From contig CP070693.1 of the NCBI GenBank assembly GCA_020353235.1, forward strand, positions 836,844 through 900,843: 64,000 bases of DNA, written 5' to 3'. Below the pieces are notes generated by a model, which worked only from the letters and a program-made list of their open reading frames with translations, did no database searches and was not told the origin of the DNA. Position numbers and translations under genes: made by a program. The DNA is from Dehalococcoidia bacterium. GTDB lineage: Bacteria > Chloroflexota > Dehalococcoidia > Dehalococcoidales > JAUYDJ01. This document shows, piece after piece, positions 2,868 to 57,263 of the stretch (its first letter is position 1; each line of letters opens with the position of its first letter).

Positions 2868-4631
2868 CTATTTACGCCCGGCAAGTATCTGCTTGACCTG
2901 CTCGATTGTCTGGCGGACATATTTCTCATCCAGCACACCGACGGCTGAAGGGGTCTCAAAGATACGCTTGGGCAGGTGGTAGTCATCTAGCGAGAAGCCC
3001 TCTCTGAACTTGAAGCGATATTTTTCACTGTGAATTTCTTCGCCAAGGCGATGAAGGTCTTCGGGAGCAATATCAAAGCCGGCTATCTGGAGCGCCCTGG
3101 AGACTAAGTCTGGTTTGTATATGTCCCGTGCAAAGAAACAGATAGCCAGGCTGGTCAAAATCTGACGCCAACGCTCCTCTTTGAGCAGGGTTTCGGCAAG
3201 CTCCCTGGGGGTGAGCTTTTCTTTGACCAGAACCTTCTGGTCAACGCTGTAGCCGGCATTATCGCAGTGATGGTGTCGGGTGGCGATAAAAGCGCCGATG
3301 TGTGCCGCTGGTCCGGTGTGATAACCAGGCATTTCGTTTTTACCGAAGGCGAGAGCAAAGTCCATGCCGCCATAGATAGAGGCGGCATGCACCACTCCCC
3401 GCGCCAGTGCCTGGTAGAAGTCATTGGGCTGTTCCACAATGAGCGGTATCGCCTTCAGGTAGCTGGTGTAATCCCCCCAGCTGAGATTGATGCCAGATGT
3501 TTCCTTTTCGGAGATGAGACCTTGCTCCTGGGCTTCGGTGGCCCAGGCCAGGATTACGCCGGTACTCATCGCATCCAGAGCCACCTCATCTACCTTTTCC
3601 AGCAGCTTGAGCAGCCCTCTGGCATCGGAGATGCCGAGCATTGGCCCCATGGCATAGAGGGGCTCGTAGTCATAGGCAATCATTGAGGTTTTATAGAAGA
3701 AGTCCTCATCTCCGTAGGGCTCTCTCAATGCCGCCAGATGGATGCAGGCTACCGGACAGTGAGCACAGGCAAGTCGCCGGCCCAAATAATGTTCGGCAAA
3801 GGTTTCCCCGGAAATCTGGCTGGCACCTTCAAATTGGGCATCCTTCAGATTCCGGGTAGGCAGGGCGCCTATCTTATTCAGCGGCAGGACATTCTCCGGC
3901 GTGCCTAGGTCATGATATTTCTTCATCGCCGACGTGTTGACGGCTGCCTGGTAAATCTCATCGTATATCTTCTGGTACGATTTGGGGTCGCTTACCGGCA
4001 GGGAGCCTTTACCGGAGATGACCAGCGCCTTCAGTTTTTTGCTGCCGAAAACAGCCCCCAAGCCGAGCCGGCCAAAGTGGCGGTAGGTCTCGGTGGCAAC
4101 GCCGGCGTAGGGAATGAGCTTCTCCCCGGCTCGGCCGATACGCATAATAGTCCTGAATCCAGCAGCGGTCTCTTTACCTCTGATAACCCGGCCGGCCGTA
4201 ATCACGCTTCTCATTCCCCACAGGGCAGACGCATCCCGGAAGTGAACTTGATTGTTATCAATGGTCAGATAAAGCGGAATTTCGCTGGCGCCTCTAATCA
4301 CGATGGCGCCATAGCCGGCCAGGCGGATGGCGATGGCACTTCGCCCCCCGGCGTGGCTCTCACCTAAGTTACCGGAGTGCGGTGATTTGAATAGAGTTAT
4401 CGTTTTGGAGGCAACTGGGAACAGGCCATTCAGGGGGCCAACGGCAAGTATAATTGGATTTTGGGCACCGAGGGCATCGCACCCGTTGGGGCATTCTTCA
4501 TGGAGAAGTTGTATGCCGACACCAACGCCACCGATGTACTTGTCAAAGAGGTTTGGTCTTTTCTCAACCCAGAATTGCTTCTTGGAGAGGTCAACATATA
4601 GGACGTTAGCTAGAGTATCATCTTTTAGCAT
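2868..4631 (-). CDS. aor: Aldehyde:ferredoxin oxidoreductase family (tungstopterin enzyme)
   Basis: 587 aa. The N-terminal AOR domain pattern is present (YVDLSKKQFWVEKRPNLFDKYIGGVGVGIQLL, SPHSGNLGESHAGG), as is an internal Cys cluster region (CAHCPVAC). It overlaps the ferredoxin gene by 14 nt. Confidence 0.9.
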   Translation of the reverse strand: MLKDDTLANVLYVDLSKKQFWVEKRPNLFDKYIGGVGVGIQLLHEECPNGCDALGAQNPIILAVGPLNGLFPVASKTITLFKSPHSGNLGESHAGGRSAIAIRLAGYGAIVIRGASEIPLYLTIDNNQVHFRDASALWGMRSVITAGRVIRGKETAAGFRTIMRIGRAGEKLIPYAGVATETYRHFGRLGLGAVFGSKKLKALVISGKGSLPVSDPKSYQKIYDEIYQAAVNTSAMKKYHDLGTPENVLPLNKIGALPTRNLKDAQFEGASQISGETFAEHYLGRRLACAHCPVACIHLAALREPYGDEDFFYKTSMIAYDYEPLYAMGPMLGISDARGLLKLLEKVDEVALDAMSTGVILAWATEAQEQGLISEKETSGINLSWGDYTSYLKAIPLIVEQPNDFYQALARGVVHAASIYGGMDFALAFGKNEMPGYHTGPAAHIGAFIATRHHHCDNAGYSVDQKVLVKEKLTPRELAETLLKEERWRQILTSLAICFFARDIYKPDLVSRALQIAGFDIAPEDLHRLGEEIHSEKYRFKFREGFSLDDYHLPKRIFETPSAVGVLDEKYVRQTIEQVKQILAGRK

Positions 4632-5043
4632 GTCCCGCCTCCAATTTGGCTAATTCGAGCACCCCGTGAGGACAGTACTTGATGCAGTAGCCGCAGTGGA
4701 TGCATATCATCGGCTTATCGGCTTCATCATCCCAGAAAATTGCCCCGATGGTGCAAGCGTCCTGACAGTTGCCACAGCCGATGCATTTGGTCAGGTCAAC
4801 CCGTACCCCTTTCCCCTTTTTAGCTTTAAGGGCACCAGAAGGGCATACCTTGGCGCAGGGTGGGTCCTCACAGGCACGACAGACGATGACGACAAAGCCC
4901 CTTTCCATTCCGCCCGCTGACCTGACTCTGATGCATGTCCTGCTTAGCCCAGCCTTTCCCATCAGCCGGGAGCAGGCGAACATGCAACTCTGGCAACCAA
5001 TACACCTTTCCGTGTCAACTACGGATAGCTTCATTAGCTTCAT
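4618..5043 (-). CDS. 4Fe-4S cluster ferredoxin-type protein (AOR partner)
   Basis: 141 aa with several CxxCxxCxxxC-type motifs (CIGCQSCMFAC, CIGCGNCQDAC, CIHCGYCIKYC). It appears translationally coupled to aor. Confidence 0.8.
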   Translation of the reverse strand: MKLMKLSVVDTERCIGCQSCMFACSRLMGKAGLSRTCIRVRSAGGMERGFVVIVCRACEDPPCAKVCPSGALKAKKGKGVRVDLTKCIGCGNCQDACTIGAIFWDDEADKPMICIHCGYCIKYCPHGVLELAKLEAGHAKR

Positions 5044-35706: not shown

Positions 35707-36114
35707 TTATCTCTTCTCAATGGCAAAGCTGCCGTCCAAGTAGGTCTCTTTTTTCCGGGTGGGCATTTTTTCCTTAAATTGGTCGATGGCGTACTGGCAA
35801 GCAGCAAAGCTGTCCTGGCGGTGGGCGGAAGCCAGGGCAATGACCAGATTGACATCGCCTACTTTCAGTTTGCCAACCCGGTGGTATATGGCGATGTTAT
35901 TCAGCTCCCATTTCTGTTTAACTTCGCTGGCTATCTGGCACAGGGTATTTTCCGCAGTACCATCAACATCTTCATATTCTACAGAGAGCACCGCTTTGTG
36001 GTGGGAAGAGTCGCGAATCAAGCCGATATAGAGTACCACACAGCCGCTACTACTGGTCTTGACCCGGGCGGCCACGCTTAGGGGAGAGATGGGCTTATCG
36101 GTAATCTTGATCAT
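35707..36114 (-). CDS. moaE: Molybdopterin synthase catalytic subunit MoaE
   Basis: 135 aa with the family pattern G.VV.Y.G..RD...HKAV..L.YE and IAIYHRVGKLKVGDVNLVIALASAHR. Confidence 0.75.
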   Translation of the reverse strand: MIKITDKPISPLSVAARVKTSSSGCVVLYIGLIRDSSHHKAVLSVEYEDVDGTAENTLCQIASEVKQKWELNNIAIYHRVGKLKVGDVNLVIALASAHRQDSFAACQYAIDQFKEKMPTRKKETYLDGSFAIEKR

Positions 36115-52055: not shown

Positions 52056-52127
<72 letters not shown>

Positions 52128-52255: not shown

Positions 52256-53845
52256 TCAATGCCAGAAAGTCTGCGTCAGGTTTAGTATCGCTATGGCGGG
52301 TTTGACTAATATCTCTCTAACTAATGTTCTTAGCAATTCATTCTCGGCGATGAATTCAGCTATCGGTGGGCTAACCGCATAGTACCCGGCTACAATCTGG
52401 GCGCCCCAGTAGTTGGGCAATAAAACTCTATCCCGGAAGTCTCTCAGGACGCCTATTTCCGGTGCGGTGTCAGTCCCGTAGGCGGCGGTGGCGATAAAAC
52501 AGCCTTCATCTTCCTCAGGTTCTGGTGCTGGCTCTGTTGCTGGTGCTGGCTCTACAGCCGGCGCTGACTCCGGTGCTGGTGCCGCCTCTGGTTCCTCAGC
52601 TGGCTCTTCGGTAGTAGCTGTGGCTACCACGGTAATATAATTAGTGGAAGTGGTGGCCATGTTCCATACATTATCGTAGCCTCTGGCCTTACAGGTAATC
52701 TCACCCGCCGGGTAGGGGCCCCCGATGTAGATGCAGCGGGAGCCAAGGCAGGTCTTTACTAGGGAGCTGTTGACCCATATCTGTAAACCTCCGATGCCGC
52801 TGGCATCTTTAGCGTAGGCAGTAAAGGTGATGTTATCCGTGATAGTGGGGTTTATCGGTGAATAGGTCATGCTCACAAAGGGTGGTGTGGTATCCTGGGC
52901 CGCCTTTTCCACGATAAGGTAGAGGGTATCGGTTGATTGCTCATTGCCCAATTTATCCCAGGCCCTGACCTTATAGGTAACCATACCCACCGAGTAGGGC
53001 CCGATTACATAGGTGCAGGGGGAAATGGTACAGGTCACCGGCACCACAGCGCCGGTGACCCATAGTTGTACACCTCCGATGCCGCTAGCATCTTCCGCGG
53101 TGACCGTAAAGGTGAGTATATCATCGCTGGTGGGATTCATGGGAGAATAGGTTATACTTATTGAGGGTGGGGTGGTATCTTCAAAAATCGGCTTTTCAAC
53201 GTTAAGGTAGAGGGTACCGGTTAATTGCTCATTACCCGCTTTATCTCGTGCCTTGGCCTGATAAGTAACCTTACCCTGAGGGTAAGGTCCCCCGGTGTAG
53301 GTGCAGTAGGCGGTGGTGCACATCCTTACCCACTCGTCGTTGACACGTATCCAGACGGTGTCGATGCCGCTAGCATCTTCCGCGGTGGCGGTAAAGGTAA
53401 TCCTGTCATCGGTGGTGGGATTCGTTGGCGAATAGGTTATGTTCACCGAGGGTGGGGTGGTATCCTGGGGGGTCTCTCCGACGGTAAGGTAGAGGGTGTA
53501 AGTGGATTGCTCATTACCCGCTTTATCCCGTGCCTTGGCCTGATAAGTAATCGTGCCCTCAGGGTAAGGTCCCCCAGTGTAGGTGCAGTAGTCACCAGAG
53601 CAGCTCTTTACCCAATCGCCGTTGACACGTATCCAGATGATATGGATGCCACTGGCATCCTCAGCATAGGCAGTAAAGGTAATCTTGTCCACTGCCGTCG
53701 GATTTGGCGGGGTATAGAATATGCTTACCGTGGGCGGTATGGTATCATCCGCGGATACTATGCTGGTGGGCACTATCATTGAGATGGCAAATACCAGCAT
53801 TAGTGCCATCACAACGGTAATAATCTTTTTACTACCTGTGCCCAT
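52256..53845 (-). CDS. Secreted/cell-surface protein: signal peptide, four Ig-like repeats of about 95 aa, Pro/Ala/Glu linker, C-terminal CFIATAAYG-box domain
   Basis: 529 aa. The N-terminal signal-like segment is KKIITVVMALMLVFAISMIVPTSIVSA. Four units begin D(D/T)T(I/P)PP. The linker is TTEEPAEEPEAAPAPESAPAVEPAPATEPAPEPEEDEG, followed by CFIATAAYGTDTAPEIGVLRDFRDRVLL. Confidence 0.8.
   Translation of the reverse strand: MGTGSKKIITVVMALMLVFAISMIVPTSIVSADDTIPPTVSIFYTPPNPTAVDKITFTAYAEDASGIHIIWIRVNGDWVKSCSGDYCTYTGGPYPEGTITYQAKARDKAGNEQSTYTLYLTVGETPQDTTPPSVNITYSPTNPTTDDRITFTATAEDASGIDTVWIRVNDEWVRMCTTAYCTYTGGPYPQGKVTYQAKARDKAGNEQLTGTLYLNVEKPIFEDTTPPSISITYSPMNPTSDDILTFTVTAEDASGIGGVQLWVTGAVVPVTCTISPCTYVIGPYSVGMVTYKVRAWDKLGNEQSTDTLYLIVEKAAQDTTPPFVSMTYSPINPTITDNITFTAYAKDASGIGGLQIWVNSSLVKTCLGSRCIYIGGPYPAGEITCKARGYDNVWNMATTSTNYITVVATATTEEPAEEPEAAPAPESAPAVEPAPATEPAPEPEEDEGCFIATAAYGTDTAPEIGVLRDFRDRVLLPNYWGAQIVAGYYAVSPPIAEFIAENELLRTLVREILVKPAIAILNLTQTFWH
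52610..53749 (-). repeat. Four in-frame tandem repeats of about 285 bp (coding)
   Basis: Each unit has the pattern DTTPPxVxITYSPxNPTxxDxITFTAxAEDASGIxxxWIxVN...C....C.YxGGPYPxGxxTYxAKARDKAGNEQxTxTLYLxV. The fourth copy is the most diverged. Confidence 0.85.
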
Positions 53846-54232: not shown

Positions 54233-55312
54233 TTAGCCCCTTTTCAGGACATGGACAGCGGTAGCCTTGAAGGTGGCATAAAGCGGTTTGTCTTTGGTCA
54301 GGTCCATTTCCTGGGCGGACTGGGTGGTGACCACGGTGATTAAGGAGAAACCGCAGTCTATCTCAATCCGGGTGAGCGCCCCGACCGTGGTCAGCCGGGT
54401 TATTCGGCCCCGAAACGAGTTTCGGGCGCTGCTCGGCGCCGATGATGGGGACAGGGTAATATCTTCGGGGCGGATACAGGCGTAGACCCTGGCTCCAGCC
54501 GGGTAATCGGAGAGCGCTTCGATAGATTTGCCGTTAATATCTAGGCTAACCAAGCCGGCTTCGCTGGCAGCAACCACCCCGTCGATGATGTTTTCCATGC
54601 CGACAAACCGGGCAACCTCCTTGTTTTCCGGCGAGGTGAAGAGCTCGGTTGCCGCCCCGATCTGGTGGACTTCGCCGTTTATCAGCACACCCATCCGGTC
54701 AGCCAGCCGTTGCCCCTGGGCGATATCGTGGGTGGCCATTATTATGGTGGTGTTGTGCTGCTGGATAATATCGCTGACCAGCTCCTCAATTCTGGCGGTG
54801 GAGTTCGGGTCGAGGTTTGCTGTCGGCTCATCAAGCAACAGCAGCTCTGGTTCGGTGGCGATTGCCCGGGCGATGGCTACTCTCTGGGCTTCACCACCGG
54901 ACAGGGTGCGGGCGTTTCTATCCTTACCATTGGAGAGGCCGACCATGTCCAGAATACGGTGGACTCTCTGCTGAAGGCTGCTTCTGGCTAAGCCCCGCCA
55001 TTTTAGACCATAGGCGATATTGTCATACACGCTGGTGTTGAAGACCACCGGTTTCTGCAGAACGAAGGACATTCGGCGGCGTATCTTCAGCCTCAGCTTG
55101 TCGGAGCGACTAGCTTCCAGCCCGTCAAAATAGATACTGCCCGAGGCCGGCGTATCCAAGAGGTCCAGCAGACGCAGCAAAGTGGTCTTACCGGCACCAG
55201 TCGGGCCGATGAGGGCAAAGACCTCACCCCGTGCCACCTCCAGGTTGATGTCTTTCAGGATATCTCGGTCTTCATATCTCTGGCATAAAGCCACTGTTTT
55301 AACTAAAGACAT
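54233..55312 (-). CDS. tupC: ABC transporter ATP-binding protein with C-terminal TOBE/Mop-like domain (tungstate/molybdate type)
   Basis: 359 aa with Walker A GPTGAGKTT, signature LSGGEAQR and Walker B LLLLDEP. The C-terminal half is an oxyanion-binding-like beta domain. Confidence 0.75.
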   Translation of the reverse strand: MSLVKTVALCQRYEDRDILKDINLEVARGEVFALIGPTGAGKTTLLRLLDLLDTPASGSIYFDGLEASRSDKLRLKIRRRMSFVLQKPVVFNTSVYDNIAYGLKWRGLARSSLQQRVHRILDMVGLSNGKDRNARTLSGGEAQRVAIARAIATEPELLLLDEPTANLDPNSTARIEELVSDIIQQHNTTIIMATHDIAQGQRLADRMGVLINGEVHQIGAATELFTSPENKEVARFVGMENIIDGVVAASEAGLVSLDINGKSIEALSDYPAGARVYACIRPEDITLSPSSAPSSARNSFRGRITRLTTVGALTRIEIDCGFSLITVVTTQSAQEMDLTKDKPLYATFKATAVHVLKRG

Positions 55313-55314
55313 AT

Positions 55315-55998
55315 TTACCTCTGCTGAATACGGTTCAGGACGAGGTTAACGAGTAGGGCAATAGTGATAAGAATTATGCCCAGGGCGATGGACAGTTCCA
55401 GGTCGCCCTTAGATGTTTCCAGGGATATGGCAGTGGTGATGACCCGGGTGAAGCCCTTGATGTTGCCGCCGACCATAAGCGCCACGCCCACCTCGGATAT
55501 AGCGCGGCCAAAGCCCATAATAACCGCCGCCACAACGGCAAACCTTGCCTCTCGGAGAACAACGGTTGCCGTCTGGAGCTGGCTGGCACCGAGGGAACGA
55601 GCCGTATCGGGAATTGCCTTATCAATGCCGCTGAGGGCGGAGATGGTCAGGCCGAGCAGTATTGGGGTAATCAGTATCATTTGGCCAATTACCATAACCG
55701 TCGGCGTGAACAGCAGGTTCAGCCCGCCCATCGGCCCTGCCCGGGAGAAGAGGATAAAAACGAAAAGCCCGATGGCGACAGTAGGGATACTGAAGAAGGT
55801 CTGAATCAAATTGATTAAAGCCCGCTTGCCGGGGAAATGGCTGAAATAGATGAGGCTGGCCAGCGGCAGGCAAATCAGCGAAGCCAGCACGGTTGCCGCC
55901 ACTGAAATCTGGAGCGACCGGCCAGCTATCTCCATCACCTCCGGGTCAAGGGAGATGATGAGCTCGATGGCTTTAATCAGCCCGTGCCATAGTTCCAT
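55315..55998 (-). CDS. tupB: ABC transporter permease (tungstate/molybdate type)
   Basis: 227 aa with about 5-6 TM segments and an EAA-like loop region (ARSLGASQLQTATVVLREARF). Confidence 0.75.
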   Translation of the reverse strand: MELWHGLIKAIELIISLDPEVMEIAGRSLQISVAATVLASLICLPLASLIYFSHFPGKRALINLIQTFFSIPTVAIGLFVFILFSRAGPMGGLNLLFTPTVMVIGQMILITPILLGLTISALSGIDKAIPDTARSLGASQLQTATVVLREARFAVVAAVIMGFGRAISEVGVALMVGGNIKGFTRVITTAISLETSKGDLELSIALGIILITIALLVNLVLNRIQQR

Positions 55999-56009
55999 AC
56001 TATGCTAGC

Positions 56010-56141
56010 CTACTTCTTGGGGCGAATCTCATACCTGCCCTCGCAGGCAATCTGGTCACCGCAGTTAGGGCAGAACTTCCAGTCTGATCTTATCTCGTAA
56101 CCACACTTCTTGCACTTGACCACCATAGCGATAACTGGCAT
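56010..56141 (-). CDS. Candidate 43-aa zinc-ribbon micro-protein inside the transporter operon
   Basis: Not in the track. The sequence is MPVIAMVVKCKKCGYEIRSDWKFCPNCGDQIACEGRYEIRPKK, with an AGGAGGTG RBS 4 nt upstream of the ATG. It fills the tupA-tupB gap exactly. The track ORF 56065..56277 is in a different frame. Confidence 0.55.
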   Translation of the reverse strand: MPVIAMVVKCKKCGYEIRSDWKFCPNCGDQIACEGRYEIRPKK

Positions 56142-56170: not shown

Positions 56171-57043
56171 TTATTTCGGCTCCGCCCCGGCACAGGGGGT
56201 GAAAAGCTGCCTTCCGTACTCTTCAACCCCGTAGCTGCCGATAAGCTCCTGTATCTGGGGCGAAGTGAGAAAAGCAATCAGATTATGAGCCATATCAACT
56301 TTCGTTTTGGGGTTCGCTGCCGGATTTACTGCAATTGCCGAGTAGACATTGAGCAGTATATCACCCTTATCTACTATCGGTACCAACTCCAGCTTGCCCT
56401 TATAGGCAAGGTAAGTGCCCATATCAGTCAGGGTATAGGCCTGTTTTTCACTGGCCATCATCAGTGTTGGCCCCATGCCGCTGCCGGCTTCAATATACCA
56501 GCTGCCCGCCTTTCTGACCGCTTCATAGGCATAACCGGCAGCCTGCCATATTTTCTTCTCTTTAGCGTGTGTTCCCGAATCATCACCCCGGGAAACAAAG
56601 CTCGCTTTAGCTGAATCCATTAGCCTCTGGAGAGCTTCCTCCGGGCTCAAACCCTTGATGCCGGCCGGGTCAGCCGGCGGGCCCAAGATGAGGAAATAGT
56701 TGTAGGCAAAGGGGACTCGCTCGACCCCGTAGCCCTCAGCGATGAATTCCTCCTCACGGGCTTTGGAATGCACGGTGATAACATCCACATCCCCTCGTAT
56801 CCCGTACTCCAGAGCCTTGCCGGTGCCGGCATACATAACATCCAGCTCAACGTTGTATTTTTGCTCAAACATAGGCTCAAGGTATCCCCAGAGACCGGTA
56901 TCGTAGAGGCTGGTGGTGGTCGCCACGCGCAATCTCGGCTGGGGCGGCATTGCTTCGGCTCCCGGGGCAGCGCAGCCTAAACTGCTCAGCAACAGGCTGG
57001 CAAGCACCAATATAACTAACGAATAAAGAAATGTCTTTTTCAA
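56171..57043 (-). CDS. tupA: Tungstate-type ABC substrate-binding lipoprotein (TupA-like)
   Basis: 290 aa with a TTG start. The lipoprotein signal is LLLSSLGC. RVATTTSLYDTGL matches the TTTS motif I associate with TupA-type binding proteins. Confidence 0.7.
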   Translation of the reverse strand: MKKTFLYSLVILVLASLLLSSLGCAAPGAEAMPPQPRLRVATTTSLYDTGLWGYLEPMFEQKYNVELDVMYAGTGKALEYGIRGDVDVITVHSKAREEEFIAEGYGVERVPFAYNYFLILGPPADPAGIKGLSPEEALQRLMDSAKASFVSRGDDSGTHAKEKKIWQAAGYAYEAVRKAGSWYIEAGSGMGPTLMMASEKQAYTLTDMGTYLAYKGKLELVPIVDKGDILLNVYSAIAVNPAANPKTKVDMAHNLIAFLTSPQIQELIGSYGVEEYGRQLFTPCAGAEPK

Positions 57044-57071: not shown

Positions 57072-57100
57072 ATAATAGAAAAGCACCTCAAGGAGGTGCT
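57072..57100 (-). terminator. Intrinsic terminator forming the expression platform of the riboswitch
   Basis: Minus-strand AGCACCUC-CUU-GAGGUGCU is a perfect 8-bp stem, followed by UUUCUAUUAU. It sits between the aptamer and the tupA start. Confidence 0.7.
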
Positions 57101-57120
57101 CGGCATAATAAATGCACTGC

Positions 57121-57222
57121 CAGCTCTCCTTTCCAAACACGGGAGGCAATGCCGTTTCCAGTATTACCCTTTCGGCCAATCTCCATAGCGTTGCCTTCAG
57201 GAGAATTGGCTCGGAGAGGTAT
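57121..57222 (-). promoter_or_regulatory. Molybdenum/tungsten cofactor (Moco RNA motif) riboswitch aptamer
   Basis: The minus-strand RNA is CCUCUCCGAGCCAAUUCUCC...GGAGAUUGGCCGAAAGGGUAAUACUGGAAACGGCAUUGCCUCCCGUGUUUGGAAAGGAGAG. It has the conserved UCCGAGCC, GGCC, GCCUCCC and GGAAAGGAG blocks. P1 is closed by CUCUCC/GGAGAG. Confidence 0.75.
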
Positions 57223-57235
57223 TTAATTTAAACCC

Positions 57236-57263
57236 ATTTTATCATATCTTGGCTAAAGGTCAA
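57236..57263 (-). promoter_or_regulatory. Candidate promoter driving the riboswitch-tup operon
   Basis: On the minus strand: TTGACC, a 16-nt spacer and TAAAAT, about 15-20 nt upstream of the aptamer. Confidence 0.4.

Follow-up and report, generated by a model that had tools for sequence, protein, structure and literature searches.

A P3-lacking Moco-family riboswitch and a conserved RAPP-ending upstream open reading frame in the leader of a putative tungstate transporter operon from Dehalococcoidales

The window analysed here is a stretch of 64,000 nucleotides (nt) from an uncultured Dehalococcoidia bacterium of the order Dehalococcoidales (GenBank assembly GCA_020353235.1, contig CP070693.1, positions 836,844 to 900,843). 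On its minus strand, an RNA of the molybdenum cofactor (Moco) motif family without the P3 helix precedes genes that resemble a TupA-type tungstate transporter of the ATP-binding cassette (ABC) class, and between the aptamer and tupA lie a predicted intrinsic terminator and a conserved upstream open reading frame (uORF) that ends in Arg-Ala-Pro-Pro (RAPP). We consider it likely that this P3-less riboswitch is a terminator-based OFF switch on the tup operon. A preliminary description of the locus had outlined the riboswitch, the terminator and the transporter, and the conserved RAPP-ending uORF inside the platform was absent from its account. The features of the leader are the following.

57236..57263, minus strand: sigma-70-like promoter, identified by consensus match (TTGACC at 57263-57258, 16-nt spacer, extended -10 TGnTAAAAT with the hexamer at 57241-57236)
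57110..57228, minus strand: aptamer, Moco RNA motif RF01055, P3-lacking subclass, from the covariance-model match and the alignment of relatives
57218-57213 and 57129-57124, minus strand: P1, CUCUCC / GGAGAG, by direct reading of the sequence
57210-57175, minus strand: P2, GCCAAUUCUCC / GGAG-AUUGGC
57170..57174, minus strand: P2-P4 junction CGAAA, the empty P3 site, from the model alignment
57144..57169, minus strand: P4, GGGUAAUACUG-GAAA-CGGCAUUGCCU, from the model alignment and covariation
57143-57133, minus strand: P5, from the model alignment
57090..57131, minus strand: antiterminator hairpin AAGGAG (57131-57126):CUCCUU (57095-57090), from RNA folding
57088..57117, minus strand: uORF GTG CAT TTA TTA TGC CGA GCA CCT CCT TGA, MHLLCRAPP*, from frame, start, stop and Arg/Lys statistics
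57072..57101, minus strand: intrinsic terminator GAGCACCUC-CUU-GAGGUGCUU (57101-57081) with the U-rich tail UUCUAUUAU, from a terminator scan

An Rfam scan of the whole 64-kb window returned a single riboswitch match, RF01055 at 57228-57110, with 78.9 bits (E = 1.9e-17) against a gathering threshold of 36 bits, and the model was matched end to end (model positions 1-135). The preliminary description had named a Moco-motif riboswitch at this place, and the covariance-model search agrees with it. Among the sequence blocks that it listed, P1, UCCGAGCC, GGCC, GCCUCCC and GGAAAGGAG are all present in the leader, and only its P2 strand AAUCUCC has to be amended, as it omits one bulged U. The RF01055 match, the terminator and the promoter-like site combined make chance alone an insufficient source of these blocks.

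Relatives were collected by scanning genome and metagenome collections with TupA, which yielded 142 loci; the closest TupA relatives (up to 89% amino-acid identity) belong to uncultured Dehalococcoidales. In nearly every Dehalococcoidia-type locus, tupA has an RF01055 match immediately upstream. When 69 unique related aptamers were aligned (four longer ones, L109, L110, L124 and L128, were excluded), compensatory double changes were found in 15/24 predicted pairs, and P1, P2 and P4 covaried. For example, the P2 columns 14:54 are CG in 44 sequences and UA in 24, and the P4 columns 67:80 are CG in 32, AU in 10, GC in 9 and UA in 8; the covariation of P4 is strong at columns 62-85. P5 is invariant, so the alignment carries no covariation evidence for or against it. 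The short P5 pairing and the junction blocks CCGAG, GCC after P2, GCCUCCC and GGAAAGG all occur in the window and hardly vary among the relatives. Both the GAAA tetraloop of P4 (GGAAAC) and the 11-nt-type receptor half CUAUGG in P2 are found in the window, and the 5' half of the receptor reads CCUGAAG, compared with CCUAAG or CCUAAAG in most relatives, which makes it a variant receptor. At one locus (L106:1020-1110) the tupA orthologue is preceded by a decayed aptamer, in which the 5' strand of P1, P2 and the 5' strand of P4 are intact and the 3' half (3' strand of P4, P5 and 3' strand of P1) is swapped for unrelated sequence. At another (L138), no aptamer lies upstream of tupA.

Regulski et al. 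(2008) split 176 Moco RNAs by the presence of P3 and linked the 58 RNAs without it to tungsten-cofactor (Tuco) metabolism, by the organisms as well as the genes concerned (PMC2408646). The preliminary description drew a candidate P3 (GGUAAU...AUUGCC) in the window and offered the leader as a test case, a P3-containing, Moco-type aptamer before a tungstate transporter and hence an exception to the P3 rule. Such a helix does exist, but the model alignment places it at P4, where it is capped by GAAA and forms 10/11 model pairs with a single A-C mismatch. The P3 hairpin of the model (consensus guggcaauuugccac, model positions about 58-72) is deleted in the window, and the P2-P4 junction that remains is just 5 nt long (CGAAA, 57174-57170); the same junction (columns 55-61) is short in 69/69 aligned relatives. 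An exception of the proposed kind is hardly credible against this alignment. The window leader is a P3-less riboswitch of the Moco family, of which we are nearly certain, and its aptamer conforms to the published association as an example of the known P3-less "Tuco" subclass.

How this aptamer may be connected with transcription was analysed by folding the leader. The candidate promoter has 10/12 consensus matches plus the TG and lies just upstream of the aptamer start at 57228, implying a putative transcription start at about 57229. The 8-bp terminator hairpin and U tract of the preliminary description were found again at 57101-57081, with nine predicted pairs (eight Watson-Crick and one G-U; -13.0 kcal/mol) followed by the tail UUCUAUUAU, and the terminator is conserved in the leaders of the relatives. 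The complementarity of AAGGAG in the 3' strand of P1 to CUCCUU, to which the same description had pointed, proved to be the minimum-free-energy fold of the nascent RNA, with a local energy of -15.1 to -16.2 kcal/mol. This antiterminator helix is prolonged by GCU:AGC and an inner hairpin GGCA...UGCC. Because AAGGAG belongs to the P1 3' strand and CUCCUU consists of the terminator left arm plus loop, the pairings are mutually exclusive. The left arm CACCUCCUU is identical to the anti-Shine-Dalgarno end of 16S rRNA. Sequestration of the tupA Shine-Dalgarno sequence by the left arm was considered for the window and dropped, since just five possible pairs were seen by eye.

The two folds of the full leader are nearly isoenergetic (-53.1 kcal/mol for aptamer plus terminator and -52.1 kcal/mol for the antiterminator fold). 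Equilibrium pair probabilities calculated along the growing transcript were 0.97 for P1 right after its synthesis, 0.97 for the antiterminator when the 3' end was at 57088-57084, and 0.82 for the terminator and 0.81 for P1 once the 3' end reached 57080 or beyond; the predicted folding order is P1, then the antiterminator, then the terminator. Since the state with terminator and P1 is as stable or slightly more stable at full length, the switch decision must be kinetic. The antiterminator is predicted in the nascent RNA of 35/35 unique related short-type leaders, and its inner stems vary in sequence between relatives while their complementarity is kept (mean z = -1.4 versus spacer shuffles). 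The alternative pairings and their conservation can be read from the leaders themselves, and actual termination is inferred from them. The antiterminator/terminator OFF-switch logic that had been proposed is thus supported in silico by folding, and on this modelling we regard a terminator-based OFF switch as quite probable.

The genes that this switch would control lie immediately downstream.

56171..57043, minus strand: tupA-like gene for a periplasmic tungstate-binding protein, 290 amino acids, TTG start, from family and structure matches
56010..56141, minus strand: zinc-ribbon ORF (CxxC...CxxC) of 43 amino acids, MPVIAMVVKCKKCGYEIRSDWKFCPNCGDQIACEGRYEIRPKK, between tupA and tupB, with a strong Shine-Dalgarno sequence AAGGAGGTG
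55315..55998, minus strand: tupB-like ABC permease, 227 amino acids (ABC_perm1 236 bits; TupB 184 bits, below cutoff; BPD_transp_1)
54233..55312, minus strand: ABC ATPase with a C-terminal TOBE domain (tupC/wtpC-like), 359 amino acids (best match WtpC, 303 bits, below cutoff; ABC_tran and TOBE)

As the preliminary description had stated, the binding protein is TupA-like with a TTTS motif (VATTTSLYDTGL). It begins with a probable lipoprotein signal (...LSSLGC), and its best solved relatives are the tungstate-binding protein 3LR1 (E = 1.5e-63) and 5MY5 (E = 1.1e-57). Its only NCBIfam match is TupA (NF041772), at 190 bits under the 400-bit equivalog cutoff, and its domain is PBP_like_2. The start of tupA is weak, a TTG with a poor Shine-Dalgarno sequence. 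The zinc-ribbon ORF recurs with 57-93% identity in the corresponding place of 30 related tup loci, and no promoter or terminator motif was found in the gap between tupA and tupB. These matches support the view that the downstream operon encodes a putative TupA-type tungstate ABC transporter, in the order tupA, zinc-ribbon ORF, tupB and tupC. Downstream of tupC, a 529-amino-acid protein (52256-53845, minus strand) contains four repeats of roughly 95 amino acids (…TFTA.AEDASGI…CTYTGGPYP.G.VTYQAKARDKAGNEQ…) and, at its end, a linker rich in Pro, Glu and Ala together with the C-terminal segment GCFIATAAYG, which probably signals surface anchoring. Next comes a tRNA gene at 52056-52127, and the relatives likewise have a tRNA gene downstream of tup.

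Judging from this sequence context, the ligand of the window aptamer would be Tuco rather than Moco. The published link of P3-less RNAs to tungsten metabolism (PMC2408646) speaks for it, and so do data from Eubacterium limosum, where P3-less RF01055 elements were found in 2024 upstream of tupABC and other operons and the results are consistent with tungsten dependence (PMC11725836). Among solved structures, the binding protein is closest to tungstate binders, and an AOR-family enzyme, typically a tungsten enzyme, is encoded in the window. This AOR gene (AFOR_N and AFOR_C; 2868-4631, minus strand) shares 14 nt with the 3' end of a gene for a 141-amino-acid poly-ferredoxin (4618-5043, minus strand), and the window scan found no RF01055 element upstream of this pair (2868-5043, minus strand). 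Both the AOR gene and the MoaE gene (35707-36114) of the preliminary description exist, to which it has to be added that both are on the minus strand.

Set against this is the possibility that the aptamer senses Moco or does not discriminate between the molybdenum and tungsten cofactors, that the transporter supplies molybdate too, and that the absence of P3 has no tungsten meaning. MoaE serves both cofactors, the equivalog cutoff for TupA was missed, and the literature consulted contained no direct ligand-binding measurement for a P3-less RNA. The P3-containing relatives count against a tungsten-specific reading as well. Three of the longer aptamers (L109:936-1068, L110:933-1066 and L124:937-1070) have a short hairpin, assigned to P3 by the model alignment, upstream of tupA orthologues whose products are 68-71% identical to that of the window; the fourth, L128, has a longer P2 and no P3. 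Moreover, aptamers with a clear P3 stand in front of the genes for eleven more distant TTTS-type TupA homologues (42-49% identity; Acutalibacteraceae/Clostridia and Anaerolineaceae), and in these aptamers P1 contains the Shine-Dalgarno sequence of the gene (L040:2866-3019, L049:2732-2873, L028:2857-3005 and L039:2854-3010, plus L023, L026, L031, L032, L033, L035 and L041). P3 is accordingly no clean predictor of molybdenum or tungsten: its association with gene class is not strict, and the strict rule that P3-containing RNAs occur only with Moco genes is contradicted by these aptamers upstream of TTTS-motif TupA-family genes. Taking both sides together, we find a Moco-sensing or non-discriminating aptamer rather unlikely and keep Tuco as the presumed ligand. 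The natural test cases for "P3 before TupA" are these P3-containing relative loci, not the window. Orthologous tupA leaders with and without P3 provide natural matched pairs for the selectivity of P3, and their coexistence makes the Moco-versus-Tuco question experimentally tractable.

We next describe the uORF. As its Shine-Dalgarno sequence it has the GGAG in the 3' strand of P1 (57129-57126), located 8 nt before the GTG at 57117. The RAPP codons occupy 57102-57091, with the Ala-Pro-Pro codons forming the left arm of the terminator, and the stop codon TGA sits in the terminator loop and the first bases of the right arm, 44 nt from the tupA start. The equivalent ORFs of the relatives have 8-13 codons up to the motif and encode peptides such as MKSVRAPP, MSLELCRAPP, MAFIASCRAPP, MTVFTPCRAPP, MGMNNAYCRAPPH and MTLLASCKAPP.

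The conservation of the uORF was evaluated over the 35 unique related leaders, with ATG or GTG at offset 12-22 counted as a start. A stop-free ORF runs into the left arm in the Pro-Pro frame in 27/35 leaders, and in the other two frames in 1 and 2; likewise, 31/36 candidate ATG/GTG codons are in the Pro-Pro frame versus 2 and 3 in the others. The distance from the start to the Pro codons is 18, 21, 24, 27 or 30 nt, the start and the left arm shifting together, and at least four frame-preserving length changes are required to account for these distances. Stop codons are 7-10-fold depleted in the Pro-Pro frame (3/393, versus 30/394 and 20/412 elsewhere). The codon preceding Ala encodes Arg or Lys in 26/27 intact uORFs compared with 4/9 leaders without an intact uORF (Fisher p = 0.0018; the sequences are related, so that p-values from this set overstate independence). 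Arg is spelled CGA, AGA or AGG in the intact uORFs, and Glu, Gly or a stop is also found before Ala in the leaders without one. Of the 27 intact uORFs, 26 have Ala-Pro-Pro after Arg (18), Lys (7) or Gln (1), and the remaining one (L006) has RTPP. In addition, the GGAG and start codon of four relatives (L014, L117, L119 and L099) are the start of tupA itself, from which it follows that the P1 GGAG is a working ribosome-binding site in the clade. Together, these regularities make it probable that the uORF is translated and under selection.

A simpler explanation is that aptamer, antiterminator and terminator suffice, with the uORF untranslated or a harmless relic and RAPP a by-product of the CACCUCC arm. 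Such a relic would stem from an ancestral layout where tupA was translated directly from the P1 Shine-Dalgarno sequence and a start codon, and the four leaders just mentioned are a possible origin of the start codon. Several observations weigh on this side and against the uORF. On paper the antiterminator alone is sufficient, as it forms in every one of the short-type leaders through variable yet complementary inner stems. GCA-CCU-CCU is almost invariant at synonymous sites, as RNA pairing demands, and therefore "APP" is partly a by-product of the complementarity of CUCC to GGAG. Codons 2-7 of the relatives' short uORFs have no third-position bias (0.61/0.51/0.56). The frame or the start codon is lost in about 8/35 leaders: leaders without a start codon persist (L066, L072, L073 and L092), and L017, L135 and L137 carry RNA-only leaders. 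The Shine-Dalgarno sequence of the uORF is predicted to be paired, in P1 or in the antiterminator, at every transcript length (unpaired probability <=0.34), and the AUG is paired in the inner stem in many relatives. The long leader ORFs (28-55 codons) that other relatives carry have no coding signature either, with pairwise differences equal at the codon positions (e.g., 5.74/5.86/5.77), and frameshifting indels are present in them. What is conserved in the short uORFs is thus the frame, the start codon and [R/K]APP only. A relic, however, would not hold starts in the Pro-Pro frame at 31:2:3 over distances of 18-30 nt, would not lose stops in that frame alone, and would not confine the codon before Ala to Arg/Lys specifically in the intact uORFs. 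We therefore judge the explanation by RNA alone unlikely and retain a translated uORF.

Two further candidates were dropped. The long leader ORFs do not stand as conserved peptides, their R-x-P-P being mainly a CCNCC anti-Shine-Dalgarno-like RNA motif. A metal-binding Cys before the Arg was also given up, because the inner stem, where CAUGC pairs with the region of the start codon, explains why Cys is frequent there.

Among close relatives, the same aptamer is found with three platforms: direct, long leader, and short uORF plus terminator. In the direct platform (L014, L117, L119 and L099), tupA itself has the P1 GGAG as its Shine-Dalgarno sequence. The long-leader platform (L003, L018, L079, L094, L005, L011 and others) is about 170-190 nt long, with an open 28-55-codon frame and the R-x-P-P / CCNCC motif. 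The N-termini encoded by some long leaders (MTKSANL...) are similar to the signal peptide of TupA in L099, a hint that the long-leader ORF may derive from an old 5' end of tupA. The P3-containing relatives L110, L124 and L109 (about 1055-1200 in each locus) have a uORF that starts 5 nt past the P1 GGAG and crosses a terminator-like hairpin, whose arms differ among the three with compensatory changes. This uORF ends in a conserved ...RCYFCSRSPP..., and its RSPP codons (CGCUCGCCUCC) look like an anti-Shine-Dalgarno sequence to the GGAGG of the downstream tupA.

The C-terminal motif has well-studied precedents. [quoted passage not shown] RAPP uORFs are already known upstream of diverse genes (PMC12992588), and in Bordetella the RAPP stall of CruR is needed for transcription of the downstream metal-related operon (PMC9426467). 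The window uORF has Arg-Ala-Pro-Pro at the C-terminal end of a small ORF 44 nt upstream of tupA, and its relatives keep an open frame and a start codon, as expected for an ORF maintained by selection. Other observations are less favourable. Lys or Gln replaces Arg in 8/27 intact uORFs (about 30%), whereas Arg is irreplaceable in ApdA, ApdP and ApcA (PMC12992588). An N-terminal signal, transmembrane or sensing segment is missing, the nine residues (8-13 in relatives) being too short to exit the tunnel. Finally, a ribosome could hardly initiate on a 9-codon uORF and reach the left arm before the polymerase is at the U tract, barring a pause. Because two family features, the invariant Arg and the N-terminal segment, are wanting, we do not call the uORF a member of the RAPP arrest peptides and suggest that it may work like one.

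If a ribosome stalled there, its P site would be on CCU (57096-57094) and its leading edge at about +16, that is, at about 57080, so that both arms of the terminator would be covered. As initiation requires that the polymerase is already at the terminator loop, the stalled ribosome is kinetically unlikely as the sole antiterminator of a 9-codon ORF, and we kept it as a reinforcing layer only. A functional coupling of RAPP stalling to the terminator or to the state of the leader is possible in our view, though we lean slightly against it.

The same kinetic argument, by which a ribosome would probably not be at the left arm before the polymerase passes, favours a uORF that acts after transcription: a parked ribosome could stabilise the tup mRNA, as in erm leaders, or feed the weak tupA start, and the riboswitch would thereby gain a second, post-transcriptional handle. 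Consistent with this idea, the uORF and tupA meet in some relatives, the stop overlapping the start (ATGA in L121) or being fused with it (in-frame in L015 and L108), and the RSPP codons CGCUCGCCUCC of the P3-containing relatives resemble an anti-Shine-Dalgarno sequence for the tupA GGAGG. In the window, by contrast, the uORF stop and the tupA start are separated by 44 nt, and the ribosome-binding site of tupA is not predicted to pair with the left arm. We hold a purely post-transcriptional role to be improbable here and place the uORF, if it acts, on top of the terminator switch.

The mechanism that we propose for the window is as follows. With the cofactor bound, P1 (CUCUCC/GGAGAG) would be closed and AAGGAG unavailable, the hairpin at 57101-57081 with its U tract would form, and transcription would halt about 30 nt before tupA. 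Without ligand, the emerging left arm CACCUCCUU would capture AAGGAG to make the antiterminator, and RNA polymerase would read through. The ligand would thus have to hold P1 against invasion by the left arm within a short time window. As a second layer, translation of the uORF may be gated by the ligand through P1, because the same AAGGAG/GGAG strand is its Shine-Dalgarno sequence. An initiating ribosome would stall when Pro-Pro occupied the P and A sites, with a footprint of about 57111-57080 that lies over both terminator arms, and once parked it would keep the leader ON rather than strip the antiterminator and free the terminator. Translation of the uORF, the stalling and its effect are all inferred from sequence.

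Carried further, the immediate output of the riboswitch could be the ligand-gated translation of a minimal RAPP arrest peptide, beyond RNA refolding alone; we put this forward tentatively and lean against it. Scarce cofactor would open P1, a ribosome would load on the aptamer GGAG and stall eight codons on at the terminator stem, and the parked ribosome would serve as antiterminator, as stabiliser of the 5' end of the mRNA, or as both. If true, this would be the first hybrid of a riboswitch and an arrest peptide and the shortest natural RAPP arrest peptide, and RAPP stalls would be controllable at initiation instead of release. If the stall is functional, the leader would link the riboswitch and nascent-peptide-arrest fields and offer a compact model of how a translational signal, access to a Shine-Dalgarno sequence, is turned into a transcriptional one. 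The literature search found no RAPP-type mini-ORF that has a riboswitch P1 strand as its Shine-Dalgarno sequence and its stall codons in an intrinsic terminator, and no RAPP uORF tied to tungstate or molybdate genes. Mini-ORFs of 8-13 codons escape annotation-based RAPP surveys.

The aptamer itself adds one Dehalococcoidales example to a known class and obeys the published P3 rule. With the P3-lacking Moco RNAs (RF01055; Regulski et al. 2008; the tupABC, wor1, fetABC and focA elements of E. limosum) it shares P1, P2, the GAAA-capped P4, P5 and the junctions, the lack of P3, the gene link (tupABC, tungsten metabolism) and the predicted OFF logic. Both terminator-type and Shine-Dalgarno-sequestering platforms have been described for the Moco family, and the window platform is of the terminator type. 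It differs from that class in its host, a member of the Dehalococcoidales (Chloroflexota), and in the conserved RAPP-ending uORF on the P1 3' strand, which is not described for the family in the literature searched. Moco riboswitches are known in Dehalogenimonas upstream of moaA and moaC (PMC13390414); to our knowledge, none has been reported there in front of tup.

The RAPP/RxPP arrest peptides (ApdA, ApdP, ApcA, SecM with RAGP, and CruR) resemble the window uORF in the C-terminal RAPP, in being encoded by a small ORF directly upstream of the regulated gene, and in a stall site that overlaps an RNA element otherwise repressing downstream expression. CruR in particular sets a precedent, since its RAPP stall allows a downstream metal-related operon to be transcribed. 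The known peptides are secreted or membrane proteins of 50-150 amino acids, and their stall ends when a force pulls on the nascent chain or a metal binds to it. In contrast, the window-type peptide is 8-13 residues long and lacks a signal sequence, which leaves nothing beyond the exit tunnel that could release it from a stall. The input would instead be riboswitch-gated initiation, and the target an intrinsic terminator rather than Rho or a Shine-Dalgarno-sequestering hairpin.

In the pyrBI leader, a translating ribosome blocks an intrinsic terminator, and UTP-sensitive pausing of the polymerase couples ribosome and polymerase. The window leader likewise has an ORF that enters the terminator hairpin, where occupancy of the left arm would block termination; unlike in pyrBI, no pause signal was identified in it, and the ribosome would be kept in place by a stall motif instead of by close coupling. 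The Mg2+ riboswitch of Salmonella mgtA contains the Pro-rich uORF mgtL, whose proline codons are the sensitive element, and this uORF adds an independent proline/translation signal. In Mycobacterium tuberculosis, a B12 riboswitch controls a uORF of ppe2, the coupling being by termination and reinitiation (PMC11260477). These two systems and the window leader have in common an aptamer and a short ORF in one leader, with ORF translation affecting (in the window, putatively) downstream expression. What sets the window leader apart from mgtA/mgtL and ppe2 is that the Shine-Dalgarno sequence of the uORF is a strand of the aptamer P1 and its putative stall codons are the terminator stem; the platform thus packs three devices into 60 nt, namely the P1 strand of a riboswitch, a Shine-Dalgarno sequence with its mini-ORF, and an arrest motif in a terminator stem.

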